Positions 1,285 to 46,638 of a stretch of DNA of 64,000 bases are shown piece after piece. Each line of letters opens with the position of its first letter. The stretch's first letter is position 1. Below the pieces are notes generated by a model, which searched no databases, was not told where the DNA came from, and worked only from the letters and a program-made list of their open reading frames with translations. The position numbers and the translations under genes are program-made. Source of the DNA: Devosia sp. 66-14 (GTDB taxonomy: Bacteria > Pseudomonadota > Alphaproteobacteria > Rhizobiales > Devosiaceae); NCBI RefSeq assembly GCF_001899085.1, contig NZ_MKVB01000006.1, forward strand, positions 1,073,492-1,137,491, given 5' to 3'.

Positions 1285-1380
1285 GTCATATTTTTTATGC
1301 AGACCGTCAGTCAGAAGGCACCGTGCAAGATTGACCACGTCAGATAAAGTATGATTTTATTGCAAAAAAGGTCGTCATAC
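1285..1380 (+). promoter_or_regulatory. AT-rich promoter region with possible FadR operator half-sites (TCATA/TATGA)
   Basis: GTATGA (1349-1354) and TCATAC (1375-1380) form an inverted pair. TCATA-N5-TATGC lies at 1286-1300. Located between the FadR gene and the binding-protein gene. Confidence 0.3.
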
Positions 1381-1393
1381 GAGGAGGGAACCA

Positions 1394-10780: not shown

Positions 10781-12103
10781 TCAGTCCTCGAGGATCAGCT
10801 CGACCACCGGGGTCACCACATCGGGCTTCAGCACCGGCAGTTCGAGCGTCAACATGCCGTCGCCGACGGCGACGCCGATGTTGGAATCGACCTCGGCATC
10901 GGGGTCGAGCCAGTGGATCTCGCTCGCGTCATGCAGGAACTGCGCGTATTTCACCTTGCGCCCCAGCCCCGGGATATGGACATGGCGGAACGGCCAGGTC
11001 TGGAGGTGGAGGTAGAGCCGGTTGCCCTTCTGGGTGAAGCGGGTGCCGACCGGCGCCTGGTACTCGGAGGGGCCGGCGCCGTAGATCGAACGGCCGTTGA
11101 CGTCGAGCCACTCGCCATAGGTCTCGAGCGCGGTGACGGCGCGCTTGTCGAAGGTGCCGCGAGCCGTCGGTCCGACATTCATCAACAGGTTGCCACCCAG
11201 CGCCACCGTATCGATCAGGATGTTGATCAGCTGGCCGGCATCCTTCCAGGTGTTCTCGTCACGGTGGTAACCCCACGAGCCCGAGAAGGTATGACAGACT
11301 TCCCAGCGCACCGGCTTGCCGTTGATGGTCGGCGCAACGCGCGGCGTATACTGCTCCGGAGTGGCGAGATCCTTGGGGAAGTTGCCGTCGGTGGGCAGGT
11401 CGAGGCGATCGCCGACAATGATGTTGGGCTGCAGTTCGCGCACCAGCCCGATCAGCTCCTCGGACTGCCAATCGGCACGGCCCTTACCGGGCATGCCCTT
11501 GTACTCGCGCTTGGGATAGCTGAAATCGAACCAGATCACCGAGATCTCGCCGAACCCGGTGAGCAGCTCGCGCACCTGGTTGTGCATGTACTCGGCATAC
11601 TTTCTGACGTCGCGGCTCTTGTTCATCTCGAGCGCATCGGGGTGGTTGCGCAGCGGATGGATGCCGTCGATCGGGAATTCCGGATGGTGCCAGTCGATCA
11701 GCGAATAGTAGAAGCCGACCTTCAGCCCCTCGGCGCGGAACGCCTCGACATAGGGTTTCAGCAGGTCCTTGCCATAGGGCGTGTTGGTCGCCTTGTAGTC
11801 GGTGAACTTCGAATCCCACAGGCAGAAGCCCTCGTGGTGCTTGGCGGTCAGCACCACATATTTCATCCCCGCCTCGCGCGCCCGGCGCGCCCACTCCTTG
11901 GGATCGTAGAGGTCGGGGTCGAAGTTCTCGAAATACTTCGCATAGGTTTCCGGCGCGATTTCCTCGCGGTGCTGCACCCATTCGTGGCGCGCGGCGAGGG
12001 CGTAAAGCCCGAAGTGAATGAACATGCCGAAGCGGTCATTGCTGAACCACGCCTTGCCGGCAGACGAGTCGAGGCCACCGCTGACGGTGAGTGCGCTATC
12101 CAA
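10781..12103 (-). CDS. Alpha-L-fucosidase (GH29)
   Basis: 'DRFGMFIHFGLY', 'AGMKYVVLTAKHHEGFCLWDS', nucleophile 'IWFD', 'GGNLLMNVGP'. RBS AAGGAGG. Confidence 0.93.
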   Translation of the reverse strand: MDSALTVSGGLDSSAGKAWFSNDRFGMFIHFGLYALAARHEWVQHREEIAPETYAKYFENFDPDLYDPKEWARRAREAGMKYVVLTAKHHEGFCLWDSKFTDYKATNTPYGKDLLKPYVEAFRAEGLKVGFYYSLIDWHHPEFPIDGIHPLRNHPDALEMNKSRDVRKYAEYMHNQVRELLTGFGEISVIWFDFSYPKREYKGMPGKGRADWQSEELIGLVRELQPNIIVGDRLDLPTDGNFPKDLATPEQYTPRVAPTINGKPVRWEVCHTFSGSWGYHRDENTWKDAGQLINILIDTVALGGNLLMNVGPTARGTFDKRAVTALETYGEWLDVNGRSIYGAGPSEYQAPVGTRFTQKGNRLYLHLQTWPFRHVHIPGLGRKVKYAQFLHDASEIHWLDPDAEVDSNIGVAVGDGMLTLELPVLKPDVVTPVVELILED

Positions 12104-30600: not shown

Positions 30601-30936
30601 TCGGTCGAGCAGTTGCGCAGCGCCATCGAGAGCGCGCGATCGACCGATGACGATTTCGTGGTCGCGGCGCTCGCCATGCCATTCGCACGCGCCCTCATGC
30701 GGCTGGACCGGGCCGGCGAGGCACGGGACGCCATCGCCGCCGCCATCGCCTATTTCCGCCGGATGGCGCTCAAGCCTTATCTCGCCAATGCCTTGATCGT
30801 GCTCGGCGACGTCGCCGATGCGCAGGGCGACGGCACCGCCGCCGCGACAGCCCGCGAAGAGGCCGCAAGCCTGCGCGATGAATTCCGGCTGCCATCGCCG
30901 CCGCCCGCGACGCCCGCTCCGGTGCTGCAGGCCTAG
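27694..30936 (+). CDS. Class III adenylate/guanylate cyclase with N-terminal zinc ribbon, AAA/STAND ATPase and TPR-like C-terminus
   Basis: 'CSKCG...FCANCG', 'VLFADV', 'GDAVLALFG', 'LGDAANVAARLQ', P-loop 'GEAGLGKS', Walker B 'MDDLHWSD', 'EGNPFYLEE'. Confidence 0.9.
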   Translation: MAMQTCSKCGFSNPDSARFCANCGNALEPPRPVEGERRFATVLFADVARSTTIAEQMDPEDWAGIMNGAFAFMNAAVSHYGGTVSRLMGDAVLALFGAPIAHEDDAERAVRAGLEMQEAAMRYAAGIKQQHGVDFDLRVGINTGIAVLAFVGDAIRTEYTALGDAANVAARLQSAAEPGTVLISADTHKLVHALFDFRPRGRIEMKGKAEPVDSYEVAGVRATPGATRGLEGLTSPLVGRAREIGLMRDRLSELGKGTGSVVAVIGEAGLGKSRLIAELKQLRDALPEPRPIWRESRAISYGQSIPYYPWRQLGRLIVGADDMDAAPVVRDKIAAWVARLGLKPTDVPFYETMIAVEGEASRIALSAMSGEAVVNGVAAAIVNAIKAVMHAGGGVVPYVMVMDDLHWSDSATLELIAQVATLAAFEPITLVLILRPDRKAASWQLVDRLQASLGSSFDKIELEPLGAAASGELLSNLLHIEELPESIRQQILERSEGNPFYLEEVLRSLIDGGQVVRDGVHWRATRAILEATIPDTLAGVLSARIDRLPDSTKRVAQTAAVIGRVFQHRVLETICREAPATERIEHVEPHLATLSYEQLVREKAREPEREYIFKHALTCEAAYGLLLRSRRKDLHARCGEALEALFAERRDEFAAMLAHHFEEAGDLPRTLQYARIAAENARRVYAVREELVHRERILATLDRMPDASAADIIDAILEWAWVRNRRGQYDGLLPQVERAVQIARELGDKRRLGLALSWMGNVHMVTGFPSRGFPYLKEAQGLATEIGDDQVLLLPLFIATWSLVERDARSGEEKLAEVIEMARKQDAPDILGHALTYRAMALARLGQFDQANGLIDEALGMISTISSPVKQADVHIGASMAYYDMGDIEKGLEHAHLGADLAMSANGLECACAGYFGVGRGELDRRNIDDALAQFRRSLKLADAVGMDYYINLIRAGVAEAEFEKGTTGSVEQLRSAIESARSTDDDFVVAALAMPFARALMRLDRAGEARDAIAAAIAYFRRMALKPYLANALIVLGDVADAQGDGTAAATAREEAASLRDEFRLPSPPPATPAPVLQA

Positions 30937-30938
30937 CC

Positions 30939-32639
30939 ATGGACAAGCCGGTGATCCTTGCCGTGGATGACGAGCCTTCGGTTCTCGCCGCGGTGGCGCG
31001 TGACCTCAGGCGCCACTACGCAGCCGCATACGACGTGGAGCGCGCCGCTTCGGGAGCCGAGGCGCTGGAGGTGCTCAAGGACCTCAAGCTCGCCGGGCGC
31101 ATCGTGGCGCTGTTCGTGGTGGATCAGCGGATGCCGGAAATGAACGGCGTGACGTTTCTGAGCCGCGCGATGGAGCTCTACCCGGAAGCTCGCCGGGTGC
31201 TGCTGACCGCCTATGCCGATACCGACGCGGCGATCCGGGCGATCAACGAGGTGCGGCTCGACCACTACCTGATGAAACCCTGGCACCCGCCCGAGGAGCA
31301 GCTCTATCCGGTGCTCGACGACCTGCTCGACGACTGGCGCGCCAGCTACCAGCCGGTGTTCGAGGGGGTGCGGGTGATCGGGCACCGCTGGCTGGCCGAC
31401 GGCCATCGGGTGCGCGATTTCCTGGCGAGGAACCTGGTGCCCTATCGCTGGCTCGACATCGAGACCGATGCCGAAGCGGAAACGCTGCGCGGGCTGGCAG
31501 GTGCGGCGGCCGAGCCGCTGCCGCTGGTGATCCTCGCCGACGGGACGGCGCTGTCGCGCCCGACGATCGCCGCGCTGGCCGAACGGCTGGGGCTGCACAC
31601 CCGTGCGACGGCCGAGACCTATGACCTGCTGGTCGTCGGCACCGGGCCGGCCGGGCTGGCAGCGGCGGTGTACGGTGCATCGGAGGGTCTGAGGACGCTC
31701 CTGGTCGAGCGCGAGGCGCCCGGGGGACAGGCCGGCACCAGTTCGCGCATCGAGAATTACCTCGGCTTCCCGGTGGGGCTCAGCGGGGCCGACCTGACGC
31801 GGCGCGGCGTGCAGCAGGCGCGGCGGTTCGGCGCCGAGATCCTGACGCCGGTCGAAGCCGTGCGTCTCGAAACGCAGGACGGCTATCACCTCGTAACGCT
31901 GAGCAATGGCAACACGGTCGCCGCACAGGCGCTGCTGATCGCGACCGGCGTCTCGTACCGGCTGCTGGAGGTACCGGGCGCGGAGCGGCTCTCGGGCGCC
32001 GGGCTCTATTATGGTGCGGCGATGACCGAGGCGATGGGCACTGCCGGACAGGATGTGCTCGTGGTGGGTGCCGGCAACTCGGCGGGGCAAGCGGCACTGC
32101 ACCTGGCACGCTATGCCAGGTCGGTCACGGTGCTGGTACGGGGAAAATCGCTTGCCGACAGCATGTCGCAATACCTGATCGAACGGATCGAGGAGACCGA
32201 GAACGTCGCCGTGCAGACCGGCGCCTCGATCAATGCACTGCTCGGCGAGGAAAGCCTCGAGGCGGCGGCGGTGCTCGACAATGCGACCGGTGCGGTGACC
32301 CAGGTGCCGGCGCGGGCGGCCTTCGTGTTCATCGGCGCTTCACCACGCACCGACTGGCTCAAGGGCAAGCTGCAGCTCGACGCCCAAGGCTTCATTCTGT
32401 CGGGACCGGATCTGGTACGCGAGCCCGGCCGCCGGCCAGACGGCTGGACGCTCGAGCGCGAGCCGTTCTGGCTGGAAACCAGCGTGCCCGGGATCTTCGT
32501 GGCCGGCGACGTGCGGCGGCAATCGACCAAGCGGATCGCTTCGGCGGTCGGCGAGGGGGCGATGGCAGTGACCTTCGTGCACCAGCACCTGCGCGGCCCG
32601 GCTCCCGCGCAACGGCCGCCGCCGGCATCAGGTGGCTGA
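30939..32639 (+). CDS. Response-regulator receiver fused to a thioredoxin-reductase-like FAD oxidoreductase
   Basis: REC motifs 'AVDDE', 'VVDQRMP', 'LTAY', 'MKPW'. TrxB motifs 'VVGTGPAGLAAA', 'GGQAGTSSRIENYLGF', 'VVGAGNSAGQ', 'GIFVAGDV'. Confidence 0.9.
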   Translation: MDKPVILAVDDEPSVLAAVARDLRRHYAAAYDVERAASGAEALEVLKDLKLAGRIVALFVVDQRMPEMNGVTFLSRAMELYPEARRVLLTAYADTDAAIRAINEVRLDHYLMKPWHPPEEQLYPVLDDLLDDWRASYQPVFEGVRVIGHRWLADGHRVRDFLARNLVPYRWLDIETDAEAETLRGLAGAAAEPLPLVILADGTALSRPTIAALAERLGLHTRATAETYDLLVVGTGPAGLAAAVYGASEGLRTLLVEREAPGGQAGTSSRIENYLGFPVGLSGADLTRRGVQQARRFGAEILTPVEAVRLETQDGYHLVTLSNGNTVAAQALLIATGVSYRLLEVPGAERLSGAGLYYGAAMTEAMGTAGQDVLVVGAGNSAGQAALHLARYARSVTVLVRGKSLADSMSQYLIERIEETENVAVQTGASINALLGEESLEAAAVLDNATGAVTQVPARAAFVFIGASPRTDWLKGKLQLDAQGFILSGPDLVREPGRRPDGWTLEREPFWLETSVPGIFVAGDVRRQSTKRIASAVGEGAMAVTFVHQHLRGPAPAQRPPPASGG

Positions 32640-32642
32640 GCC

Positions 32643-34088
32643 ATGTCCGCAGTTGCAGCCGACGCTCGGCAGAGCACCGACCTGATCCGCCAGGTGCCGA
32701 TGTTTGCCGAACTGAGCGAGGCCGAAGCGAGCGAGCTCTGGCATGCCGGCCGGCGGGTCGGGCTCAGCCCCGGCGAGGTGTTCATCCGCGAGGGCGAGCA
32801 AGGCGGTACGCTCTACATTATCCTTGCTGGCGCAGTGGAGGTGACCAAGCGGGACGGCGAGCACGAGGTGACGCTGGCAACGCGCGGGCCCGGGGAGTTC
32901 CTCGGCGAGATGTCCCTCCTCGAACAGGCGCCTCGCACCGCATCGGTGCGAGCCACCGAGCCGAGCCAGGTGCTGGCCATCGGCTCGGAAGCATTCCGCC
33001 AGTTGCTGGCACGGCGACCGGAGGCGGCGGCGACGCTGCTGCGCACCGTGACCTCGCGCCTCAGGAGCACCGAGGCCTCGCTGGTGCAGGCCGACAAGCT
33101 GGCGGCGCTTGGAACGTTGGCGGCGGGGCTCGCGCATGAGCTCAACAATCCCGCCGCCGCGATCCAGCGCTCGACCGGATATCTCAGTGAAGCGTTCGAG
33201 GAGTGGCGCCGCCGGACGGTCGAACTCAGCATGCTGGAGATGACACCCGAGGAGCGGCAGGGGCTGGCGGAACTGGAGCGCAGCATCGCCGATTGCCGGG
33301 CAACGCGCTGCTCCGACGCCGAGGCGCGACGGATCGAGTCGCGGCTGAGCCAGCGGCTCGAAGGGCTCGGAATCGCCGATCCCTGGGAAATCGCCCCGGC
33401 GATGGCCGCCTATGGCTGGTCGGTCGAACGGCTGGAGCCGGTACTGGCCAGCTTTGCCGCAGCGCATGTCACCCCGGTGCTGCACTGGCTGGGGCGCGGG
33501 CTGGCGGCGCAGCAGCTGATGGAAGAGATCGAGGTCGCCTCCAAGGCGATCTCCGGCATCGTCAGGTCGGTGAAGGCCTATGCCTATCTCGACCAGGCGC
33601 CGGTGCAGGATGTCGATATCGCCATGAGCCTCGACGACACGCTGATGATCCTCAATCACAAGCTGAAGCACGGGGTAACGGTGACCCGACTGTACGAGCC
33701 GGCTCTGCCCCGGATCGAGGCCTATGCCGGCGAGCTGAACCAGGTGTGGACCAACCTGATCGACAACGCCGTGCAGGCGATGGATGGGACGGGCCGGCTG
33801 GAAGTCGGCGCCAGGCGACTGGGCGATGAGGTCGAGGTACTGATCGCCGACAGCGGGCCGGGCATCCCCGAGGACGTGGGGCGGCGGATCTTCGAGCCGT
33901 TCTTCACCACCAAGGCACAGGGCGTCGGCACCGGCCTCGGCCTTCACATCGCGCACAACATCGTGGTGAACCGGCACCGCGGGCGCATCAGCTTCAGCTC
34001 CCGCCCCGGGCGGACCGAGTTCCGCATCGTGTTGCCATTGCGGCTGGGCCGCCCAGCGACACCGGAGAAGACCCATGGCGATGGGTGA
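32643..34088 (+). CDS. cNMP-binding-domain sensor histidine kinase
   Basis: cNMP '[10 protein letters not shown]...PRTASV'. H-box 'AHELNNP', N-box '[10 protein letters not shown]', G boxes 'DSGPGI' and 'GTGLGL'. Confidence 0.92.
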
Positions 34089-35884: not shown

Positions 35885-37096
35885 ATGTCGAAGTCGAAGA
35901 ATCCGCTGAACGACGAGAAAAACCGCTCCCCCGCCACCCAGGTCGTGCATGGCGGCACGCAGCGAAGCCAGTTCAAAGAGACCTCGGAAGCGATCTTCAT
36001 GAACTCGGGCTACTCCTACCCGAGCTCGCAATATGCCGAGGACCTGTTCCTCAACAAGATCAACAAACCGGCCCATAATTACTCGCGCTTCGCCAACCCG
36101 ACGATGGACATGTTCCAGGACCGGATGGCGCTGCTCGAAGGCGCGGAAGCCGCGCGGGCCTTCGCCACCGGCATGTCGGCAGTCACCAACGCAGTGATGA
36201 GCCAGGTGCGGGCCGGCGACCACATCGTGGCGGCGCGCGCGCTATTCGGCGGGTGTCGCTATGTCGTCGAGGACCTGATGCCGCGCTTCGGCGTCAACTC
36301 CACGCTGGTCGACGGGCGCGACCCCGAGAACTTCGCCCGGGCGATGCGAGAGAACACCAAGGTGATCTTCATCGAGACGCCGACCAACCCGACGCTGGAA
36401 CTGGTCGACATCGCGGCCGTGGCGAAGATCGCCAAGGCGCATGGCGCCAAGCTGATCGTCGACAACGTGTTCGCCACCGCGCTGTTCCAGAAGCCGTTGC
36501 AGCTGGGCGCGGACCTCGTCACCTATTCGGCGACCAAGCATATCGACGGCCAGGGCCGGGCACTGGGCGGTATCGTTCTGGGGTCGAAGGAACTGATCGA
36601 GGGTGATGTACACACCCTGTTGCGCCAGACCGGGCCGTCATTGTCGCCGTTCAATGCGTGGGTGCTGCTCAAGGGCATCGAGACGCTGCCGATCCGCGTC
36701 AGGCAGATGACCGAGGGCGCGACTAAGGTGGCCGACTTCCTCGCCGGGCACCCCAAGATCGAGCGCGTCTCCTACCCGTTCCACCCCTCGCACCCGCAAT
36801 ACGAACTGGCCAAGCGGCAGATGAAGAGCGGTTCGACGCTGGTGGCGTTCGAGGTCAAGGGTGGGCGCGAGGCGGCGTTCACGCTGTCGGACTCGCTGGC
36901 GGTGATCCTGATCTCCAACAACCTCGGAGATGCCAAATCGCTGATCACCCATCCGGGCACCACCACCCATGCCCGGTTCACCGAGGAGGTTCGGCTGGAA
37001 TCGGGCATCACCCCGGGCCTGCTGCGGCTTTCGGTGGGGCTCGAGGACGCCGATGACCTGATCAAGGACCTCGAATACGGGCTGAGCCAGGTCTAG
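35885..37096 (+). CDS. metZ: O-succinylhomoserine sulfhydrylase
   Basis: 'ETSEAIFMNSGY', 'YSRFANPT', PLP lysine 'YSATKHIDGQGR', 'SNNLGDAKSLITHP'. SAM-II leader. Confidence 0.93.
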   Translation: MSKSKNPLNDEKNRSPATQVVHGGTQRSQFKETSEAIFMNSGYSYPSSQYAEDLFLNKINKPAHNYSRFANPTMDMFQDRMALLEGAEAARAFATGMSAVTNAVMSQVRAGDHIVAARALFGGCRYVVEDLMPRFGVNSTLVDGRDPENFARAMRENTKVIFIETPTNPTLELVDIAAVAKIAKAHGAKLIVDNVFATALFQKPLQLGADLVTYSATKHIDGQGRALGGIVLGSKELIEGDVHTLLRQTGPSLSPFNAWVLLKGIETLPIRVRQMTEGATKVADFLAGHPKIERVSYPFHPSHPQYELAKRQMKSGSTLVAFEVKGGREAAFTLSDSLAVILISNNLGDAKSLITHPGTTTHARFTEEVRLESGITPGLLRLSVGLEDADDLIKDLEYGLSQV

Positions 37097-37197
37097 GGCG
37101 AGGTGTCCGGCCTGACGCAATCTGCGAGTGCAGACGGCGTCGGGCCGGCGGATCGCAGCGCGGCCGGGCGCATCTTGCCGACGACGCGGCGAACGGC

Positions 37198-37779
37198 TCA
37201 TTGCGGCTCGACCGGCGCCTGCCAGAACGGGCCGCGCATCCACTGGTCGCGGAACAGCTCGAAGTTGACGAAGTCGATAATCTCGCCGGTCACCGGGTTC
37301 TGCTTATGGCGATGCCAGGTGCCGACATGGTCGAAGCCCAGACGGCGATAGCTGAAGATCGACGCGGCGTTGCGGGAATCGACCACCCCATAGAAGCGCT
37401 CGACGCCGCAATGGGCAAAGAAGTGGTTCAGCAGGCGGGCTCGCACCTCGACCACAACGTTCCTGCCCCACCAGGTGCGGTCATGCACGGCGACGGTGCC
37501 GAAGGCCGAGCGATAGCCTTGCAGCCGCACCATATGCGCGCCGATGGGCACCTGCTCACCCTTGGGGATGATGGCAAAAGCGAAACGGTTGCGAGTGCGC
37601 GGCAGCGGCCCGCGCAGCAGCCAGTGCCCAAGCGAGCGAGGCTTGGACGTCTGCATCAGGCCGGTGAGAATCTCCGGATCGTGGCGCCAGCTATTGGTGA
37701 CGCGCACGGCCTCGATCAGCCCCATGGGCTTGAGGATGAAGCGTTCGGTTTCAAGCGGACCGACGACCAGCTTGCTCAT
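37198..37779 (-). CDS. RimJ/RimL-type GNAT N-acyltransferase (last gene of the RiPP operon)
   Basis: 'LETERFILKP', 'WWGRNV', 'NAASIFSYRRLGF'. ATGA overlap with the upstream ligase. Confidence 0.8.
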   Translation of the reverse strand: MSKLVVGPLETERFILKPMGLIEAVRVTNSWRHDPEILTGLMQTSKPRSLGHWLLRGPLPRTRNRFAFAIIPKGEQVPIGAHMVRLQGYRSAFGTVAVHDRTWWGRNVVVEVRARLLNHFFAHCGVERFYGVVDSRNAASIFSYRRLGFDHVGTWHRHKQNPVTGEIIDFVNFELFRDQWMRGPFWQAPVEPQ

Positions 37780-39173
37780 TGCCGTTCGACCATGGCGCGG
37801 ACATCGGCGCGCACGATCTTGCCGCGATCATTGCGCGGGATCGCCGCCACCGCGAACAGCCTCGAGGGCACGGCCTCGTCGCGCACACGGGCCCGGCACC
37901 AGGCCTTCAACGCCTCGGGATCGAACGATGCTCCGTCAGCGAGGACGATTGCCGCGGCCACGGCCTCGCCGGCAATGGCATCCGGAATGCCGAAGGCACA
38001 GGCCTCGGCGATCGCCTCATGCCGCTCGAGCAGCATGTCGATCTCCTCGGCCTGGATCTTGATGCCGCCGCGGTTGATCTCGGATTTGCTGCGGCCGACG
38101 AGGATGAGGTTGCCGGCCTGGTCCAGCTCGCCGATGTCGCCGGTGCGGAACCAGCCATCGACGAACGCGGCCTCGTCGAGGTCGGGGCGTTGCCAGTAAC
38201 CCAGCATCATCGAGGGGCTTTGCACCAGCACCTCGCCGCGTCCCGCGGCATCGGCGGCGATGGCGACGTTGCCGCCCCAGAGCCGGCCGACATAGCCGTC
38301 GCGCGCCTCGGCCTCGTCGAGACTGCCGCCGGCGATCCAGTTGGCGGTTTCGGTCATGCCGAACATGTTGAACACCTGGCGCGTGCCGCACCACTCGGCG
38401 ATGGCGCGCCAGTGTTCGATGGAGAGCGGGGCCGAGCCGACATGGACGCGCTCCAGCACCGGGCCGGGACGCGCCGAGACGCGCAGCGCCAGCTTCCAGA
38501 ATGACGGCACCGAACTCATGAAGCTGATGCGGTTGGCCGTCAGATAGCCGGCGAGGCCGGCGAGTTCGCCGAGCGCCGGACTCGGCCACAGGTGTACCCG
38601 TCCACCGGCCAGCAGCGGGGTCAGGACGTTGCCGATCAGCCCATGGCCAAAGAACACCGGCAGCACGCAGAGGCTTTCGCGCAGGGTATGGGGGCCGATC
38701 TCGGCGCTGTTCAAAGCGGCGCGGGCAAGCAGGCTGCGCACCGAATGGACGATGCCCTTGGGCCTCCCGGTGGTGCCGGAGGTCATCAGGATAAGAGCCG
38801 GATCATCGAGGCGCAGCGGCCTCGGCTCCCCCTGCTCCGGAGCGCCGCTGGCCGGCCGCTGCGGGCCGAGCCAGATCGAGGCACCGGTGGCCTGCAGCAC
38901 GTTCTCGCACTCTTCAGACCTGAGGCCGGGATTGACCGCGACAGCGACGAGGCCGACCTCCCAGCAGGCGAAGATGGCAACGAGATAGTCGACAGGATTG
39001 GGCTCGGCCACCACCGCCCGGGCGCCTGGCCTTAGGCCGCGGCCCGTCAGTTCGGCGGCCTTGTCGCCCACCCGCCGGCGGATGCCTTCCGCGCTCAGCG
39101 CCGCGCCGCCCCTCACATCGACCAGGGTCGCGGCTGCAGGAAGCATGGCAGTGAACGAGAGGTTCCGGATCAT
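37776..39173 (-). CDS. AMP-dependent synthetase/ligase (ANL) in the RiPP operon
   Basis: 'ILMTSGTTGRPKG', 'FGMTET', 'WFRTGDIG', 'INRGGIKI', 'PRNDRGK'. ATGA overlaps at both ends. Confidence 0.9.
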   Translation of the reverse strand: MIRNLSFTAMLPAAATLVDVRGGAALSAEGIRRRVGDKAAELTGRGLRPGARAVVAEPNPVDYLVAIFACWEVGLVAVAVNPGLRSEECENVLQATGASIWLGPQRPASGAPEQGEPRPLRLDDPALILMTSGTTGRPKGIVHSVRSLLARAALNSAEIGPHTLRESLCVLPVFFGHGLIGNVLTPLLAGGRVHLWPSPALGELAGLAGYLTANRISFMSSVPSFWKLALRVSARPGPVLERVHVGSAPLSIEHWRAIAEWCGTRQVFNMFGMTETANWIAGGSLDEAEARDGYVGRLWGGNVAIAADAAGRGEVLVQSPSMMLGYWQRPDLDEAAFVDGWFRTGDIGELDQAGNLILVGRSKSEINRGGIKIQAEEIDMLLERHEAIAEACAFGIPDAIAGEAVAAAIVLADGASFDPEALKAWCRARVRDEAVPSRLFAVAAIPRNDRGKIVRADVRAMVERQ

Positions 39174-40144
39174 CCAGCGCCTCGCGGGACGATGCGCTGC
39201 AGGCCACGGAAGGTGTGGCGGCGGACCTTGGAGAAGAACGCCGTGGGGGCGGCGAGCACCGCGGCGCCATCGACCAGCCGGGTTGCAAAGCCGCTGGCAC
39301 TGCCGCCGTCGATACGACCGCCGGCGGCATGGGCGGCGGGAGCGTCGAACAGTTCGGCGATCAATTCGAGGCAGAGGCGCGCCTCGAGCCCGAGGCCCAG
39401 CCGGCGCGCCATCTCCGGCAACAGGGCGACTTCATCGGGCGAGAGGTGGCGCCAGGCCTGCAGCACGTCGACCAGCAGCCGAAGCTGGTGGAACTTGTGA
39501 CCCAGTGCGGCATGGACCACGGCGACGAAGAACTGCGGCAGGCCGGCGCTCGCGTCACCCCGGCCGCTGGCCATGAACTCGGCATAGCCGAAGCTGATGC
39601 GCCGGCGCAGGCCCTGGTAGTGCACCAGGTTGCCATGCACCTCGATCAGCAGTGCATCCATGTCGGGCTGGATCCACTTTTCTTCCTGGTTCTGTTCGGT
39701 GTGGTCGAGCAGCGGTTTCAGGAACAGCCGATAGCCGAGCCCGGTCAGCAGGTCGCCGATCGGGGCGCGGGCCGAGGGCGCCACCATGATGTCGATATCG
39801 GTGAAGGGTCGATCCGACGGTGCCGGATAGATCTGCCGGGCAAAGACCGGGCCCTTGACGATCACCGCCTCGAGGCCGTTCTCGGCGATATGGCGGTCGA
39901 CCTTGGCGGCGATGCCGCGCAGGTGCATCGACAGGCCGACCAGCAGGGTCAGCTCGCCCTGCGCCTCCCGAAGCGCGGCAGTGCTGTGCTGGGGAGCGAG
40001 CTTGCGCGTCACGACGGGCAGCACATTGTGGTCACGCGCCAGCTGCAGCAGTGGGTCGACCAGTTCCGCCGGGACGGTGGCGGCCGGCGCCTCAGGGTCG
40101 GCCAGGGTGCACACCAGCGTGTCGAGCCGGGCGATCATCATCAT
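39170..40144 (-). CDS. Nucleotidyltransferase of the type found in RiPP/lasso clusters (PF14907-like)
   Basis: 'IVKGPVFARQIYP..SDRPFTDIDIMV', 'IEVHGNL', 'HAALGHKF..LRLLVDV'. Confidence 0.8.
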   Translation of the reverse strand: MMMIARLDTLVCTLADPEAPAATVPAELVDPLLQLARDHNVLPVVTRKLAPQHSTAALREAQGELTLLVGLSMHLRGIAAKVDRHIAENGLEAVIVKGPVFARQIYPAPSDRPFTDIDIMVAPSARAPIGDLLTGLGYRLFLKPLLDHTEQNQEEKWIQPDMDALLIEVHGNLVHYQGLRRRISFGYAEFMASGRGDASAGLPQFFVAVVHAALGHKFHQLRLLVDVLQAWRHLSPDEVALLPEMARRLGLGLEARLCLELIAELFDAPAAHAAGGRIDGGSASGFATRLVDGAAVLAAPTAFFSKVRRHTFRGLQRIVPRGAG

Positions 40145-41136
40145 GCAACGATCTTTTCGATGTTGAGCGCCGCCAGCATGACCGGTGTGAGGTCGGTCGG
40201 ATCGGACCCGGCGGACAGCCGATAGGCGGGCACGGCTCGCACCAGGTCACCGAGCCGCCTGAACAGTTCGCGCTCGCCCTTGGGCACACCGACCCTGGTG
40301 GAACGCACGTTGTCGGCGGCGGCGAGGGCAAGCACCTCGGCCTTGCTGGTCGGCTCGCAGCGGCTCGTCGTCTCGCCGCTGCGCTCCAGCACGAGAACCG
40401 CCGCGATCTCGCGCGCGGCGATGCTCTCGACGCTGACCGTGGTCCTCAGCGCCGCGAGGGTCACCGGCCGCTCGTCCTCGGCGCTCCACTCGCCACTCAG
40501 CAGCGGTTTCACCCAGGGCAGCATTTCGGCGGTGCGGCGATGCACCTTGAGGTTTCGCGGCATGCCCCAGGCGGTCGGCCGGTCAGCGCCGACATTGCAG
40601 GCCATGGCATCGTCGGAGCAGAGACCCAGGCCCCCGGCGGCCAGCGCCAGGGTCGAAGTGGTCTTGCCGGCGCCACTGCGGCCGAAGATCAGCGCCACGC
40701 GACCATCAGGCAGGGTCAGCCCGGCGGCGTGGACGAGAAACTGGTTCGCGGCCAGCAGCGCCGCCTGCAAGGCAAGCTGCCCGCAGGTCATGACGATCCG
40801 CTCCTCGGCCCCCGGGGCGACGATGATGGTCGCCTCGCGCGCCGTATCGGACAGGGTGAGCGAAATGACGCCCGGAAACGCCAGGACGCGTTCCTGCGGT
40901 GCCTGCCAGAAGCAGGCCTCGCCCTCGTCGAGGATCGGCCCCTGATACAATGGGTCGGTGCCCTGCGGCATCGCCAGCGGCTCGCCCGAGGTGATGGTGA
41001 GTCCGAAGGCCAGCGGAGCGGTCGGCAGGGGGCGCGAGCGGCCGGCGAAGATACGGCCGAAGAAATCCACCAGCACCGGCTGTATGGCGGTGACCCGCAG
41101 CGAGGCGCCCTGCAGGTCGAAGAACTTCTGGATCAA
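40141..41136 (-). CDS. HPr-kinase-like P-loop kinase (RiPP Ser kinase type)
   Basis: 'VHAAGL...ALIFGRSGAGKTT...LCSDD', the HprK-like His, P-loop and DD signature. Confidence 0.82.
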   Translation of the reverse strand: MIQKFFDLQGASLRVTAIQPVLVDFFGRIFAGRSRPLPTAPLAFGLTITSGEPLAMPQGTDPLYQGPILDEGEACFWQAPQERVLAFPGVISLTLSDTAREATIIVAPGAEERIVMTCGQLALQAALLAANQFLVHAAGLTLPDGRVALIFGRSGAGKTTSTLALAAGGLGLCSDDAMACNVGADRPTAWGMPRNLKVHRRTAEMLPWVKPLLSGEWSAEDERPVTLAALRTTVSVESIAAREIAAVLVLERSGETTSRCEPTSKAEVLALAAADNVRSTRVGVPKGERELFRRLGDLVRAVPAYRLSAGSDPTDLTPVMLAALNIEKIVA

Positions 41137-41606
41137 ACTCTGGCTCCGTGCGGGTCCGCCGGCCCGACCGCCGGGGCGGCGTGCACATGAATCTGCACCT
41201 GGCCGGGGATGCGGGCATTGATGACTTCAACGCCGTCCAGCGTCACCCAGCAATGCGCTGAAAGGCTCGGCCGGCCGATGGATTTGGGGTCGACGGAAAA
41301 ATGCAGGCGTGGCTCGTAGCCGCAACGACGCAAGGCGGCGAAGCCGACCAATCCGCTGCGCAGGCACCGATTGTTGCGCATCAGGATGGGCCAGCGCGCC
41401 GCACGCCGTACCGAGCGGGCGATGTAGGAGACCGGAAAGCGCGGCCAGCTATGGGGCGGCACCGCCGAGACGTCGCTCAGTATCTGGGAGAACTCGCGGC
41501 CTGCGATACGTGCCGGAAGCGTTCGCGCCGCGATCCACAGCCGTAAACGAAATGCCAGCCGATCGAGGGACCCGGCGCCGGCCTGTTCTGCCGGCTCACG
41601 CGGCAT
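41133..41606 (-). CDS. Lasso-type B2 leader peptidase (transglutaminase-like)
   Basis: Catalytic 'RCLRSG' Cys and 'SAHCWV' His. ATG 41606 overlaps the PqqD 3' end. Confidence 0.85.
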   Translation of the reverse strand: MPREPAEQAGAGSLDRLAFRLRLWIAARTLPARIAGREFSQILSDVSAVPPHSWPRFPVSYIARSVRRAARWPILMRNNRCLRSGLVGFAALRRCGYEPRLHFSVDPKSIGRPSLSAHCWVTLDGVEVINARIPGQVQIHVHAAPAVGPADPHGARV

Positions 41607-41865
41607 GCACGATGATGCCTTCAGCAACCAGCCCGGCGATCAGTTCCGGCAGGTCGTCGGCCAGCGTGGCGGCGTCGACCTCGAACTCATCGGCCATGCG
41701 ATGCGCCACGGCTTCGACGTTGCGGACGCCGTCGAGATGCTTGAGGAAACAGAGCGAGGTGTCGTTGCACGAATAGAGCTGCCCGCTGCCAAGCAGGAGG
41801 ATGACAGCGCCCTCCCCCACCGGTTCGAACGAAACTTCGTCGCCGAGGCGGTACACTGCATCCAT
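41596..41865 (-). CDS. PqqD-family RiPP recognition element (B1/RRE)
   Basis: 89 aa. 'GEGAVILLLGSGQLYSCNDTS...LDG...VAHRMADEFEV...DDL..LIAGLVAEGII'. Confidence 0.88.
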   Translation of the reverse strand: MDAVYRLGDEVSFEPVGEGAVILLLGSGQLYSCNDTSLCFLKHLDGVRNVEAVAHRMADEFEVDAATLADDLPELIAGLVAEGIIVHAA

Positions 41866-41896
41866 TCACGCACCAGAAATTCAAGACAAACAGGGT

Positions 41897-41923: not shown

Positions 41924-42013
41924 TCACACCGGCGGAGTTTTGCTCGTCGCAGCAGAAATCGCTGCAAGCTTCTGCTCTTTGACGATGGTCGGCTTGGCGT
42001 AGACCTTCTTCAC
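41924..42013 (-). CDS. RiPP precursor A6, MKKVYAKPTIVKEQKLAAISA-ATSKTPPV (29 aa)
   Basis: Manually translated. GTG start 7 nt after AGGAGG, TGA at 41924-41926, YxKPxI leader. Confidence 0.88.
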   Translation of the reverse strand: MKKVYAKPTIVKEQKLAAISAATSKTPPV

Positions 42014-42149
42014 GTTCAGTCCTCCTGCAATCTGCCCCAATGCAGATTTCTGGCAGCCTATCACGATCCGGCCGCGAACTCACACCCGAACGAAAGAGCC
42101 CCGCCCCCGCGTACCGATGCGGTCGTTACGCGACGAGACGGCGCCGCAA

Positions 42150-42233
42150 TCAGAACGGCTTGCTGCTCACAGCGGTGATCGCCACGAGTTTCTGGTCCTT
42201 GACCAGCGTCGGCTTGCTGTAGTGCTTCTTCAT
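42150..42233 (-). CDS. RiPP precursor A5, MKKHYSKPTLVKDQKLVAITA-VSSKPF (27 aa)
   Basis: Manually translated. Purine-rich RBS (GGGGATGAAG) and conserved leader. Confidence 0.88.
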   Translation of the reverse strand: MKKHYSKPTLVKDQKLVAITAVSSKPF

Positions 42234-42297
42234 CTTCATCCCCAAATCGCCCAGATCGGACCGACTCGAGCCGGTCCAATTCGCCACATCCACCAGA

Positions 42298-42393
42298 CTA
42301 TTGTTGGGGCATTTTGCTGGAAACCGGCACAGCCGTAATGGCAGCCAGTTTCTGCTCTTTGACCAGAGCCGGCTTCGTGTACGTCTTCTTCAT
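42298..42393 (-). CDS. RiPP precursor A4, MKKTYTKPALVKEQKLAAITA-VPVSSKMPQQ (31 aa)
   Basis: Manually translated. GGGGGA RBS, TAG at 42298-42300. Confidence 0.88.
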   Translation of the reverse strand: MKKTYTKPALVKEQKLAAITAVPVSSKMPQQ

Positions 42394-42513
42394 GGTTATC
42401 CCCCAACCTACACGCTCACGGTGCAGATCTTCAGACTAGCAGAAGTTGCGCCCGTCCGGACAATCACTTCTTTGCTGTCATCGACAAGGGATCGGCGACC
42501 CCGAGTCTTATCG

Positions 42514-42600
42514 TCAGCCAGCCGGTTTGCTGACAACAGCAGTGATAACCGCGAGCTTCTGGTTCTTGACCAGCGTCGGTTTCGTGTAGGTCTTCTTCAT
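42514..42600 (-). CDS. RiPP precursor A3, MKKTYTKPTLVKNQKLAVITA-VVSKPAG (28 aa)
   Basis: Manually translated. GAGAGGGA RBS and conserved leader. Confidence 0.88.
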   Translation of the reverse strand: MKKTYTKPTLVKNQKLAVITAVVSKPAG

Positions 42601-42650
42601 CTGCATCCCTCTCAAGACGGCCTATCGGGTCCGGATGACACCGGACGCGA

Positions 42651-42746
42651 TCACGGAGGCGGAGCTTTGCTCGAAATCGGAGCTGCTGTGATGGAGGTCA
42701 GCTTCTGCTCTTTGACAAGAGCCGGCTTGGAATAGGTCTTTTTCAT
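42651..42746 (-). CDS. RiPP precursor A2, MKKTYSKPALVKEQKLTSITA-APISSKAPPP (31 aa)
   Basis: Manually translated. AGGGA RBS and conserved leader. Confidence 0.88.
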   Translation of the reverse strand: MKKTYSKPALVKEQKLTSITAAPISSKAPPP

Positions 42747-42874
42747 CATCATTCCCTATGCGCGCCCCCAAGGCGCGACGACGGCAGAGTAACAGAACCG
42801 ATGCAGATCGGAAAACCCGGTTGTCTTGCTGTCACCAGGAAAAGGAGACCGGAGCGATGCCCCGGCCCCTCAGG

Positions 42875-42964
42875 TCACGTCACCTTGCTGGAAATCGGCT
42901 CGGCGGTGATCGAGGTGAGCTTCTGCTCTTTGACAAGCACAGGCTTGGTATAGGTCTTTTTCAT
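42875..42964 (-). CDS. RiPP precursor A1, MKKTYTKPVLVKEQKLTSITA-EPISSKVT (29 aa)
   Basis: Manually translated. GGGA RBS and conserved leader. Confidence 0.88.
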   Translation of the reverse strand: MKKTYTKPVLVKEQKLTSITAEPISSKVT

Positions 42965-43046
42965 AGTATGTCCCAAAAATTCCCCTGCACAACCAGCAGG
43001 GTAGCAGGGAAACTACCTGAGTCGGCCGACCCCGCAACCGCTCCGT

Positions 43047-43271: not shown

Positions 43272-43457
43272 TCTCATCGGCTGCTGTGCGGTCGCGACGA
43301 GCGACCATAGCCTCCGGCAGCTGACAGGTTGCTGAACCCCGCGCGTCCTCACGCACCTTGCGAAGAATTCACCCACCTTACCAAGCCCTAATGCGACTTC
43401 TTGATCTCGGCGCTCTACTTTAGGTGCGATGGGTATTTGGGCTTTGCAGGTGCGGCG

Positions 43458-44681
43458 ATGAAGCGGTGGTTGAAGTGGATTGTCCTGGTGGTCCTGCTCG
43501 GCGCAGCCGGCGCGGGCTGGCTGGTGTTCAGCGCCCCCGCCAAGGATGAGGTGCCGCGCACGACGCCGGTGGCCCGCGGCAATGTCGAAGAAACCGTCCT
43601 CGCCTCGGGCGTGATCCAGGCCAGTTCGCTGGTCAGCGTCGGCGCCGAGGTCTCGGGCCGGATCAAGACGCTCAATGTCGCCCTGGGCGACGACGTGAAG
43701 GCCGGCGACGTGATCGCCGAGATCGACTCGCTGAACCAGGAGAACGCGGTGAAGGCGGCGCAGGCGGCGCTCGCCAACACCGAGGCGCAAAAGACCATCC
43801 AGACCGCCAATCTGGGCCAGGCGAGAACCGCGCTGGACCGGGCGGAAAAGCTCAGCCCGCAGAAACTGATCTCAGATGCCGACCTGCAGACGGCCCAGTT
43901 GGCGGTGCAGACCGCCGAAGGACAGCTGCAGGCGATCGACGCGCAGATCCAGCAGGGGCAGATCAACGTCGAGGCGGCGCAGCTCAATCTCGATCGCACC
44001 AAGATTGTCGCGCCGTCGGACGGCACGGTCGTGGCGGTGTCGGTGGAAGTCGGCCAGTCGGTCAATGCCAACAATTCCTCGCCGACCATCGTCAAGCTCG
44101 CCAACCTCGACAAGATGGTGGTGAAGGCGGAAATCTCGGAGGCCGACGTGCCGCGGGTGGAGCCCGGGCAGCAGGTCTATTTCACCATCCTCGGCGATCC
44201 CGACACGCGCATCAATGCGACCCTGCGGGCGGTCGAGCCGGCGCCGGATTCGATCGCCTCGGACGACACGTCGTCGAGCTCGTCGGCCACCGCGGTCTAT
44301 TACAACGGCCTGTTCGACGTCGATAATCCCGGCCACAAGCTGCGCATCTCGATGACCGCACAGGTGACGATCGTGCTCAAGTCGGTCGACGACGTGCTGA
44401 CCGTGCCCGCCTCGGTGCTGGGCCGGAAGGGTCGCGACGGCAACTACCTCGTGCAGGTCTGGGACCAGCAGAAGGGCGCGGTCGAGCCCAGGAAGGTCAG
44501 TGTCGGGCTCAACAACAACGTGACGGCCGAGGTGCTGGACGGGCTCAGCGAAGGCGACCTGGTGGTCAACGGCACCGCCGCCGCGCCGGCAGCCCGTACC
44601 GGCAACGCGCAAGGCGGCGGCAACCGGAACATCCTCACCGGCGGCGGACCGCCGGTCGGAGGGTTCGGGCGCGGAGGCTGA
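43458..44681 (+). CDS. macA: MacA-family periplasmic adaptor subunit
   Basis: N-terminal TM, 'VSVGAEVSGRIKTL', 'TKIVAPSDGTV', 'KAEISEADV', 'LRISMTAQV'. Confidence 0.9.
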   Translation: MKRWLKWIVLVVLLGAAGAGWLVFSAPAKDEVPRTTPVARGNVEETVLASGVIQASSLVSVGAEVSGRIKTLNVALGDDVKAGDVIAEIDSLNQENAVKAAQAALANTEAQKTIQTANLGQARTALDRAEKLSPQKLISDADLQTAQLAVQTAEGQLQAIDAQIQQGQINVEAAQLNLDRTKIVAPSDGTVVAVSVEVGQSVNANNSSPTIVKLANLDKMVVKAEISEADVPRVEPGQQVYFTILGDPDTRINATLRAVEPAPDSIASDDTSSSSSATAVYYNGLFDVDNPGHKLRISMTAQVTIVLKSVDDVLTVPASVLGRKGRDGNYLVQVWDQQKGAVEPRKVSVGLNNNVTAEVLDGLSEGDLVVNGTAAAPAARTGNAQGGGNRNILTGGGPPVGGFGRGG

Positions 44682-44685: not shown

Positions 44686-46638
44686 ATGACCGAGCCGCTG
44701 ATTTCCATCCGGAAGCTCCGCCGCGAGTATCCGATCGGCACCGAGAGCATCACGGTGCTCAAGGATATCGACCTCGACATCGAGGCCGGCGAGATGATCG
44801 CCATCATCGGACAATCCGGCTCCGGCAAGTCGACATTGATGAACGTGCTCGGCTGCCTCGATAATGGCTGGACCGGCGAATACCGGCTCGCCGGACGCGA
44901 CATCGCGCGGCTCAAGCCCGATGAGCTGGCCGAGCTCCGGCGCGAGCATTTCGGTTTCATCTTCCAGCGCTACCAATTGCTGGCCGATCTCGATGCGCTG
45001 GAAAATGTCGAAGTGCCGGCGATCTATGCCGGTGCGCGCAAGCAGGCGCGGCGCGAGCGGGCGCACAAGCTGCTGGAGCGGCTGGGTCTGGGCGAGCGGC
45101 TGACGCACCGGCCGAACGCCCTGTCCGGCGGCCAGCAGCAACGTGTCAGCGTGGCGCGCGCGCTGATCAATGGCGGCGAGGTGATCCTCGCGGACGAACC
45201 CACCGGGGCGCTCGATTCACGGAGCGGCAAGGAGCTCATGGCGTTGCTCAAGGAGCTCAATGCCGAAGGGCATACCATCATCATCGTCACGCACGACCCC
45301 ACGGTGGCGGCACAGGCCGACCGGGTGGTCGAGCTGAGCGACGGCGTGATCGTCGCCGACCGCCGCAAGGATGGAGTCGATGCCCCGGCCGGCCGGTCCG
45401 GCGACGCCATCAAGCGGATTCCGCGCTGGCGCGAAGCGATCGACCGGGTCGGCGAAGCCTTCCAGATGGCGCTCAGGGCGCTGTCGAGCCATCGCCTGCG
45501 CACCTTTCTCACCATGCTCGGCATCATCATCGGCATCGCCTCGGTGGTGTCAGTGGTGGCGCTGGGGCAAGGCAGCCAGCAGGCGGTGCTCGACCGGATC
45601 AGTTCGATCGGCACCAACACCATCAACATCCTGCCCGGCACCAATGCCGCAGACCGGCGACGCGACGCGATCCGCACGCTGGTGCCGGCCGATGCGGCGG
45701 CGATCGCCGCGGAAAGCTACGCCGACAGCGTGACCCCGCAGGTCTCCAGCAACGGCCAGGCGCGCTATCGCAACGTCAGCGCCGCCGCGCAGGTGCAGGG
45801 CGTCGGGCCCGACTATTTCCGGGTCAACAATCGCAGCTTCGTCGAGGGTGCGGCATTCGATACGGCCAGCACCAGCGCGCTGGCGCAGGTGGCGGTGATC
45901 GACACCACGGCGCGCGACACGCTGTTCACCAACGGCGAAGATGCGGTCGGGCAAGTGGTGCTGGTCGGCAATGTGCCGCTCAGGATCATCGGCGTGGTCG
46001 CGGCGAGCACCAACAATTTCGGGCCGCAATCGAACTCGATCAGCATCTGGATGCCCTACACCACCGCGATGTCGCGGATCCTGGGGCAGAGCTGGCTGTC
46101 GACGATCACGGTCCGTGTCGCCGACACAGCCGACGTCACCGAGGCGCAGGCGGAGATCCAGGCGCTGCTCGAGCAGCGGCACGGCACGGTGGATTTCAGC
46201 CTGCAGAACACCGACACCATTCGCGAGACCATCCAGTCGACCTCGCAGACGCTGACGCTGCTGATCTCGGCCATTGCCGTGATCTCGCTGATCGTGGGCG
46301 GCATCGGGGTGATGAACATCATGCTGGTGTCGGTGCGCGAGCGGACCCGCGAGATCGGCGTGCGCATGGCGGTCGGGGCCCGGCAGGGTGATATCCTGCA
46401 GCAGTTCCTGATCGAGGCGGTGCTGGTCTGCCTGATCGGCGGCACGGTCGGTGTGCTGTTGTCGCTGGGCATCGGCTTCGGCGTCGAGCGGCTGATGAGC
46501 GGGCTCACCTTCATCTACTCGCCGGCGACGATCATCGCGGCGTTCGTCTCGTCGAGCCTGATCGGCGTGCTGTTCGGCTTCATGCCGGCGCGTTCGGCGG
46601 CGCGCCTCGACCCGGTGGTGGCGCTGGCCAGCGAGTGA
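44686..46638 (+). CDS. macB: MacB-family ABC exporter (ATPase + permease fusion)
   Basis: 'GQSGSGKST', 'LSGGQQQRV', 'ILADEPTGALD', 'LTMLGIIIGIASVV', 'GGIGVMNIMLVSVRERTREIG'. Confidence 0.95.
   Translation: MTEPLISIRKLRREYPIGTESITVLKDIDLDIEAGEMIAIIGQSGSGKSTLMNVLGCLDNGWTGEYRLAGRDIARLKPDELAELRREHFGFIFQRYQLLADLDALENVEVPAIYAGARKQARRERAHKLLERLGLGERLTHRPNALSGGQQQRVSVARALINGGEVILADEPTGALDSRSGKELMALLKELNAEGHTIIIVTHDPTVAAQADRVVELSDGVIVADRRKDGVDAPAGRSGDAIKRIPRWREAIDRVGEAFQMALRALSSHRLRTFLTMLGIIIGIASVVSVVALGQGSQQAVLDRISSIGTNTINILPGTNAADRRRDAIRTLVPADAAAIAAESYADSVTPQVSSNGQARYRNVSAAAQVQGVGPDYFRVNNRSFVEGAAFDTASTSALAQVAVIDTTARDTLFTNGEDAVGQVVLVGNVPLRIIGVVAASTNNFGPQSNSISIWMPYTTAMSRILGQSWLSTITVRVADTADVTEAQAEIQALLEQRHGTVDFSLQNTDTIRETIQSTSQTLTLLISAIAVISLIVGGIGVMNIMLVSVRERTREIGVRMAVGARQGDILQQFLIEAVLVCLIGGTVGVLLSLGIGFGVERLMSGLTFIYSPATIIAAFVSSSLIGVLFGFMPARSAARLDPVVALASE

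Follow-up and report, generated by a model that had tools for sequence, protein, structure and literature searches.

Several described biosynthetic systems attach acyl groups to amines by means of GNAT-family enzymes. In the altemicidin pathway, the adenylating enzyme SbzL, the carrier protein SbzG and the GNAT enzyme SbzI act together: an acid is activated by a free-standing adenylating enzyme, loaded by it onto a small, likewise free-standing carrier protein, and passed by the GNAT to an amine, the acceptor being an azaindane dinucleotide and not a ribosomal peptide (PMC11685415). Among peptides that are made on the ribosome and modified after translation (RiPPs), GdvG is described as a GNAT that depends on an acylated acyl carrier protein (ACP) and acylates a RiPP (PMC11685415, PMC8784127). 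Goadvionins (with GdvG/AprG-type GNATs) and lipoavitides receive the acyl group from a carrier-bound donor after leader removal, their acyl chains being built by polyketide or fatty acid synthases and their peptides containing avionin or lanthionine macrocycles (PMC8784127, PMC11685415, PMC13647313). In lasso peptide clusters, an HprK homologue phosphorylates a Ser residue of the precursor (PMC8498205), and PsmN adds a hexose to the phosphate (PMC6993621). Elements of both kinds of system are found together in a 64,000-nucleotide stretch of the genome of Devosia sp. 66-14 (contig NZ_MKVB01000006.1, positions 1,073,492 to 1,137,491; hereafter the window), where an enzyme of the ANL superfamily (class I adenylate-forming enzymes) and a GNAT share an operon with lasso-type genes and short peptide precursors. 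On balance, this ANL enzyme is probably the acid-activating member of an acyl-transfer module that tailors the encoded peptides. By itself the enzyme is ordinary; the interest lies in the pathway to which it is attached and in the fact that its carrier protein has been lost in nature.

The operon comprises, in order, six precursor genes, a PqqD-like RiPP recognition element (RRE), a lasso-type B2 leader peptidase, an HprK-like kinase, an NTP_transf_5 nucleotidyltransferase-fold protein (NTase), the ANL enzyme and the GNAT (Table 1). As in the paeninodin and pseudomycoidin clusters, B1 and B2 are split, an HprK-like kinase and an NTP_transf_5-type protein are encoded, and the leader carries Thr at position -2. 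Those clusters contain a cyclase and a C-terminal modified Ser (PMC8498205, PMC6993621), whereas here the operon has no cyclase, the acidic residue is missing from cores that are in any case too short, the Ser is internal, and an ANL-GNAT pair (with a carrier protein in relatives) has been added. In contrast to goadvionins and lipoavitides, a single ANL enzyme would supply the acid, and the Ser-containing cores are short and apparently linear. The stop codon of the NTase gene overlaps the start codon of the ANL gene by 4 nucleotides (ggATGAtc at 39170-39173), the ANL and GNAT genes overlap in the same way (cAATGAgc at 37776-37779), and further 4-nucleotide overlaps lie upstream of the NTase gene, among the kinase, B2 and RRE genes. 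The B2 protein scores 47.8 bits against the NCBIfam model lasso_biosyn_B2 (cut-off 33). The kinase retains the SGxGKTT and DD motifs, and its database matches are weak (26 bits to NCBIfam HprK_rel_A/HprK_rel_B, E=0.037 to Pfam Hpr_kinase_C); a faint Pfam match to "ScmC" gave nothing usable.

The ANL gene begins with ATG and encodes 465 amino acids. Both Pfam domains of the ANL superfamily score above their thresholds (AMP-binding, E=1.3e-53, 182.7 bits, cut-off 29.9; AMP-binding_C, E=2.4e-13, 51.2 bits, cut-off 24.5), and all core motifs are present: A3, TSGTTGRPKG (S132-G140); A5, FGMTETANW (G272, M273, E275); A7, FRTGDIG (G345, D346); A8, GRSKSEINRGGIKIQAEE (G360, R361, K363, G370, K372), with the hinge GRSKSEINRGG; and A10, PRNDRGK (P446, G451, K452). 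The key residues of these five motifs are invariant in an alignment of 54 homologues. An AlphaFold2 model built on the homologue alignment (pLDDT 89.5, pTM 0.85) shows a complete two-domain ANL fold whose best match in the PDB is MenE (5x8f, TM 0.87). It also superposes on oxalyl-CoA synthetase, feruloyl-CoA synthetase, MatB, 4-chlorobenzoyl-CoA ligase and the amide-bond synthetase McbA (TM 0.82). The gene product is thus a real, intact acid-activating enzyme. A prior sequence-only reading, which described an intact ANL enzyme with A3/A5/A7/A10-like motifs translationally coupled within a RiPP operon, is borne out by the Pfam domains, the invariant residues and the gene overlaps.

A sequence search of the PDB returned the same set of structures as the fold search (best 5ie0, E=2.3e-47), and the closest sequences and folds are MenE, oxalyl-CoA, malonyl-CoA and aryl-CoA ligases (5x8f, 5ie0, 6qjz, 4fut, 3cw9). 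By sequence and fold the enzyme falls among CoA ligases for di-acids and aryl acids, with which it shares only 22-27% identity. It falls below the curated cut-off of every named acyl-CoA-ligase family in NCBIfam, including the best match, FadD7 (235 bits, cut-off 650), and MenE (TIGR01923, 181 bits, cut-off 330). The enzyme thus stands outside any named ligase family and is similar to MenE and oxalyl-CoA ligase by structure. Like MenE-type ligases, it is compact and two-domain; unlike theirs, its genomic partners are a carrier protein and a GNAT rather than a CoA-dependent pathway. An identity as a fatty acyl-AMP ligase (FAAL) was considered and rejected. The FAAL-specific insertion in the N-terminal domain blocks the use of CoA (PMC8460268), and no large insertion is present relative to MenE or oxalyl-CoA ligase (477 alignment columns for a 485-residue target).

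Relatives of the ANL enzyme are abundant. A scan of one genome per species returned 285 of them, and the best 80 loci were analysed, with mechanical ORF (open reading frame) calls in these GC-rich sequences (65% GC). Homologues with 55-89% identity occur in Devosia, Hoeflea, Oricola, Kaistia, other Hyphomicrobiales and Rhodobacterales. The GNAT gene follows the ANL gene in 76 of 81 loci, and an ORF of about 75 codons follows the GNAT gene in 81 of 83. The product of this small ORF passes the Pfam PP-binding model (PF00550, 22.2 against a cut-off of 20.8), contains a W-D-S-(L/I)-x-H site that is at least 90% conserved, and is a phosphopantetheine-type carrier protein. Since it trails the ANL-GNAT pair so regularly, the conserved unit is a trio of ANL enzyme, GNAT and carrier protein, and the layout is that which would be expected for adenylation, carrier loading and GNAT transfer. 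These counts agree with one of two options in the sequence-only reading, in which the ANL enzyme feeds an activated acyl group to the GNAT, although the relatives route it through a carrier protein. Searches of GNAT against PDB sequences did not return SbzI or SbzG, either by phmmer (E up to 1) or by profile (E up to 0.01), the presence of these proteins in the searched PDB copy being unchecked. The family profile instead matched AAC(6'), SpeG and RimJ/L structures, with aminoglycoside and polyamine acetyltransferases at the top.

In Hoeflea marina (L082; related loci are numbered with L), two precursor-like ORFs flank the trio, and neither an RRE nor a B2 gene lies within 10 kb of it. Genes for a ketoacyl synthase, a second ACP, an epimerase/reductase and an FAD oxidoreductase are its neighbours there (L082:12685-16409). 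These neighbours are a possible hint that the acyl group in this species is lipid-like.

The association of the trio with peptide genes was scored within 10-kb flanks, a scope under which split clusters would count as trio-only, and was mapped onto a simple neighbour-joining tree of 80 ANL sequences (79 loci and the window). In 37 of the 80, two or more members of the set RRE, B2, kinase and NTase lie within this distance; 24 well-flanked loci have none or one, including three with the NTase alone (L037, L040, L044), and 19 were too short to judge. Association changes state at least eight times on the tree, and the deepest clades are all trio-only. Trio-only loci lie among housekeeping genes, often with a helix-turn-helix (HTH) regulator upstream and an ABC exporter downstream. 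No shared small ORF was detected beside them, an all-against-all comparison of short ORFs having yielded alternative-frame artefacts only. Where peptide genes are present, gene order varies and may be colinear or divergent. Of the 38 loci that have the NTase gene, 30 place it immediately next to the trio and in the same orientation, and precursor genes flank the trio at L015, L044 and L049 with no RRE detected, L049 also having the kinase and the NTase. In all, the trio accompanies peptide genes in 37 species and occurs without any RRE or B2 in at least 24.

In the opposite direction, metagenome contigs were searched for the kinase with a profile built from six close sequences, and the core cluster was recovered both with and without the trio. 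It is accompanied by the trio at L090-L093, L102, L103 and L112. At L111, L114, L115 and L119 the trio is absent and a gene for a B12-binding radical-SAM enzyme follows the NTase gene. At L104 and L108, also without the trio, a formyltransferase gene lies beside the precursors, joined at L108 by formate-tetrahydrofolate ligase, and the L117 cluster has neither trio, radical-SAM enzyme nor formyltransferase. A Formyl_trans_N protein is encoded in 17 related loci altogether, 10 of which also have the trio. Since clusters of precursor, RRE, B2, kinase and NTase occur without the trio, some of them with other tailoring enzymes, these five components form the core of the family, and the ANL module appears to be one of several accessory tailoring units.

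The precursors give further information on the likely product. In the window, all six share a near-identical lasso-like leader (MKKxYxKPxLVKxQKLxxITA) followed by differing cores of 6-10 residues built around S-S-K or S-K (EPISSKVT, APISSKAPPP, VVSKPAG, VPVSSKMPQQ, VSSKPF and ATSKTPPV), and Lys follows Ser in every one. Related loci contain 1-10 precursor copies, such as ten of the GANFSGKK type at L052. Across 84 distinct precursors from the window and related loci, predicted cores are 5-24 residues long (median 10). Position -2 is occupied by Thr in 70 of them and position -1 by Ala in 81, in agreement with the cleavage signature of lasso B1/B2 systems, and NCBIfam models of lasso leaders give weak matches. 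Seventy-nine cores contain Ser and every one of the 84 has Ser or Thr; Lys is found in 64 and is absent from 20, Asp or Glu occupies positions 7-9 in only five, and the C-termini are hypervariable. With cores this short, Lys and acidic residues this irregular and C-termini this variable, neither a lasso fold nor a conserved lactam between Lys and the C-terminus can, as judged from these predicted cores, be the common product. The locus thus has the RRE, the B2 peptidase and the leader Thr of a lasso cluster, and lacks its cyclase and the acidic core residue. It likewise departs from the selidamide systems, whose GNATs (KspN, PhaN, NpuN), although also RiPP-associated N-acyltransferases, acylate Lys or ornithine side chains of lanthipeptides with fatty acyl groups from primary metabolism and have no dedicated ANL enzyme or carrier protein (PMC8784127, PMC13647313): 20 cores have no Lys to serve as acceptor, and the operon contains no LanM-like lanthionine synthetase gene.

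The absence of a lasso cyclase, which the sequence-only reading had reported, was upheld. Pfam scans of large ORFs between 27.7 and 51.3 kb of the window, the ANL gene and the other operon genes among them, gave no hit to Asn_synthase (PF00733, to which lasso cyclases belong), and for about 10 kb around the operon there is no lasso cyclase; the sole ORF with an SGGxDS motif in the entire window, at 10781-12103, encodes an alpha-L-fucosidase. At the 80 ANL-centred loci, the only candidates were AsnB-type enzymes with an intact GATase domain (L028, L031, L064). A screen of all loci for SGGxDS returned only AsnB, NAD-synthase and QueC-type proteins, in five loci. At L028 (4569-6416) and L031 (4856-6718) only, the AsnB-type asparagine synthase lies about 3 kb from the cluster; it has an intact glutamine-amidotransferase domain and does not resemble a lasso cyclase.

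The carrier protein that defines the module elsewhere has been lost in this genome. In contrast to 81 of the 83 related loci, no carrier-protein match was found in the window, and the ANL-GNAT pair has no adjacent protein with a phosphopantetheine-attachment Ser of the kind that the SbzL/G/I module possesses. A degraded relic of the gene, overlooked by the sequence-only reading, lies in its place. The ATGA overlap with the GNAT stop codon is kept, the frame is broken by insertions and deletions after about 40 nucleotides, and alignment to the closest Devosia loci shows that about 110 nucleotides are deleted, including the WDS(L/I)xH serine site. An identical ANL enzyme occurs on 23 independent contigs from several metagenomes, and the relic arrangement was seen in all five representative places shown and in a strain with 98.6% identity. 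Because it recurs in this way, the loss is no assembly artefact. A second, independent loss occurred in the Devosia lineage of L093 (L093:13920-14150), where the gene has given way to a palindromic, GC-rich repeat element about 110 nucleotides long; the same element is found intact downstream of the carrier-protein genes of L091 and L003.

Despite the loss, the ANL enzyme and the GNAT in the window are both full length, and every invariant ANL residue is kept. Ratios of nonsynonymous to synonymous substitution (dN/dS) for the two genes are 0.11-0.14 in lineages with and without the carrier protein: 0.139 (ANL) and 0.141 (GNAT) for pairs that include the window, against 0.123 and 0.126 for carrier-positive lineages, values similar to those of the kinase and the NTase. 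Relaxed selection after the loss was not seen in these ratios, and both genes are still under purifying selection in this genome. Since the carrier protein was lost twice and both enzymes were retained, a dedicated carrier seems to be dispensable in this clade. The ANL enzyme and GNAT of the window presumably work through CoA, which the closest structural relatives of the ANL enzyme use, or through another cellular ACP.

These findings can be assembled into a scheme whose chemical steps, acyl substrate and acceptor site we infer from sequence. In the relatives, the ANL enzyme would most likely adenylate a carboxylic acid other than an alpha-amino acid, because its A4 region (FFGHG) lacks the Asp that binds an alpha-amino group and acyl-CoA-ligase models outscore the amino-acid adenylation domain in NCBIfam (235 against 139 bits); the closest solved ANL structures all activate carboxylic acids. 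The acid would be loaded as a thioester onto the carrier protein's phosphopantetheine arm, after which the GNAT would pass the acyl group to an amine. In the clade of the window, a peptide pathway that derives from lasso systems but has no cyclase would have recruited this module as an accessory for tailoring. The RRE would bind the lasso-like leader, the HprK-like kinase would phosphorylate the conserved core Ser, as the HprK homologues of lasso clusters do (PMC8498205), and the NTP_transf_5 protein would decorate the phosphate after the model of PsmN (PMC6993621). B2 would then cut after the Thr-Ala junction and remove the leader, whereupon the GNAT would N-acylate the released short peptide, and a MacAB-type pump may export the product. 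The simplest acceptor would be the new N-terminus, since B2 frees an alpha-amine there and no other amine is common to all predicted cores. In this scheme the ANL enzyme is no replacement for the cyclase, and no macrocycle is implied.

Several points weigh against the involvement of such a module in peptide tailoring. No member of the family has known chemistry. In at least 24 well-flanked trio loci the surrounding 10 kb are devoid of peptide genes, and trio-only loci share no small ORF, so the module's native acceptor could be something other than a peptide. With the defining carrier protein gone from this genome, the pathway in the window may be altered or compromised. The kinase is assigned from weak matches, the GNAT profile lies closest both to RimJ/L and to acetyltransferases of small-molecule amines (AAC(6'), SpeG), and the coexistence of formyltransferase and trio in 10 loci fits poorly with a single N-terminal amine as the target of both enzymes. 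An independent neighbour, serving for instance the N-acylation and export of a small amine, would account for the trio-only loci with their regulators and exporters, for the trio-only deep clades and for a GNAT resembling polyamine and aminoglycoside acetyltransferases. It would, however, leave unexplained the 4-nucleotide overlaps inside a single operon, the recurrence of the association in 37 species with differing gene orders, the contiguity of NTase and trio and the precursors that directly flank the trio at L015, L044 and L049, and we regard it as unlikely. That the module is decaying in this lineage, its ANL enzyme and GNAT having ceased to function once the carrier protein was gone and now turning into pseudogenes, seems still less probable. 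The relic recurs in the representative places for the 23 contigs with the identical ANL enzyme and in the 98.6%-identical strain, and L093 adds a second loss, but the intact ORFs, the retained invariant residues and the dN/dS values speak for continued function, and two losses with both enzymes kept suggest a dispensable carrier instead.

A different acceptor is about as improbable as an independent neighbour. The GNAT could acylate a Lys side chain in the manner of selidamides, given the Lys that follows Ser in all six window cores and occurs in 64 of the 84, or it could acylate an amine on a moiety that the NTase installs on phospho-Ser, given that the NTase is the constant neighbour of the trio. 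The aminoglycoside and polyamine acetyltransferases at the head of the GNAT profile matches fit such acceptors, as does the coexistence with formyltransferase, which suggests two distinct amine targets. On the other hand, 20 cores have no Lys, the PsmN precedent adds a hexose, which is free of amines (PMC6993621), and the trio-only loci have no NTase. For the same reasons (the formyltransferase, the GNAT profile and the constant NTase neighbour), the N-terminus as the acceptor is rated clearly less probable than tailoring by the module as such. Much the least credible is the proposal that the ANL enzyme substitutes for the cyclase and defines the class, adenylating a C-terminal or side-chain carboxylate of the peptide for attack by Lys or the N-terminus to give a macrolactam. 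The acyl-adenylate chemistry of ANL enzymes, the presence of McbA among the structural neighbours, the missing cyclase and the Lys in all six window cores are compatible with it, yet the enzyme is tied to a carrier protein and a GNAT at nearly all loci, the trio stands without a precursor at some of them, and core clusters exist without ANL. Some cores, moreover, are only 5-7 residues long, and neither Lys nor an acidic residue at positions 7-9 nor a constant C-terminus is shared. Both the placement of the enzyme in the position of the missing cyclase and its use for C-terminal lactam formation, as suggested from the sequence, are therefore not supported by these observations.

Tailoring of the peptides by the ANL module accordingly remains the favoured explanation. 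More tentatively, the wider family may be an undescribed and widespread alphaproteobacterial RiPP class in which RRE and B2 are reused, without a cyclase, for linear peptides of 5-24 residues that would be Ser-phosphorylated, phosphate-decorated and N-acylated by ANL enzyme, carrier protein and GNAT, the Devosia lineage of the window having switched to CoA or a housekeeping ACP. In the full-text literature searched, whose coverage excludes most subscription journals, no description was found of the cyclase-less family or of the ANL-GNAT-carrier trio in a RiPP pathway. The peptide family is apparently undescribed, while the logic of its acyl transfer is already known.

Table 1. Features of the operon, its surroundings and related loci. 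Positions are those of the window unless a locus is given.
Feature	Position	Strand	Evidence
ANL (class I adenylate-forming) enzyme	37776..39173	-	PF00501, PF13193, AlphaFold2 model, 285 relatives
Degraded carrier-protein (PP-binding) gene relic	37100..37201 (also given as 37100-37210)	-	alignments with L002-L004, L091-L092
GNAT N-acyltransferase (Acetyltransf_3, RimJ/RimL-type), 193 aa	37198..37779	-	PF13302 E=1e-9
NTP_transf_5 nucleotidyltransferase-fold protein, 324 aa, PsmN-like	39170..40144	-	PF14907 E=1.2e-23
P-loop HprK-like kinase, 331 aa	40141..41136	-	weak HprK matches
Lasso-type B2 leader peptidase (transglutaminase-like), 164 aa	41133..41627	-	PF13471 (Transglut_core3) E=8.9e-12; NF033537
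PqqD-like RRE (B1), 89 aa	41596..41865	-	PF05402 E=4.6e-12
Six tandem precursor genes	41924..42976: 42875-42976, 42651-42752, 42514-42615, 42298-42393, 42150-42293, 41924-42064	-	
HlyD-type adaptor	43401-44681	+	Pfam
MacB-type ABC transporter	44686-46638	+	Pfam
B12-binding radical-SAM genes in trio-less clusters	L111:6237-7697, L114:3553-5466, L115:4507-6822, L119:8503-9390		
Formyl_trans_N protein, about 335 aa	L104:7185-8195, L108:2267-3265, L042:15353-16360 and 14 more loci; formate-tetrahydrofolate ligase of L108 at 5-1681		

Around the operon, the HlyD/MacB pair is transcribed divergently and adjoins the cluster only in close Devosia loci; it is a possible exporter, a role proposed from its position and domains. 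On the opposite side, past the carrier-protein relic, a convergent Cys/Met-metabolism gene ends at 37096. Upstream of that neighbour, a run of signalling genes on the forward strand (27694-34088) encodes an adenylate/guanylate cyclase with AAA and TPR domains (1080 amino acids), a response-regulator receiver fused to a pyridine-nucleotide-disulfide oxidoreductase (566 amino acids) and a cyclic-nucleotide-binding HATPase protein (481 amino acids). The operon sequence also occurs in many bioreactor and wastewater metagenomes. The region is present in two RNA-seq runs, where the contig also spans the convergent neighbour and could be carried-over DNA; in one of them, X26, from an unrelated organism, a 6.4-kb contig with 98.6% identity covers positions 36000-41884 of the window, possibly as DNA carry-over.

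If the module acylates peptides, it would provide a compact, gene-encoded route to N-acylated phospho-peptides, in which one small ANL enzyme chooses the acid and the GNAT attaches it to highly variable cores encoded by up to ten precursor genes per locus. Such an arrangement would be attractive for the engineering of lipopeptides and acyl-peptides. The family would also show the lasso RRE/B2 pair at work outside lasso peptides, and mining rules that equate RRE plus B2 with a lasso peptide would need correction. Few GNATs of this sort, dependent on a carrier protein or on CoA, have been characterised (PMC11685415), and the repeated loss of the carrier protein with retention of the ANL enzyme and the GNAT offers a natural experiment on the dependence of such GNATs on a carrier protein or on CoA.

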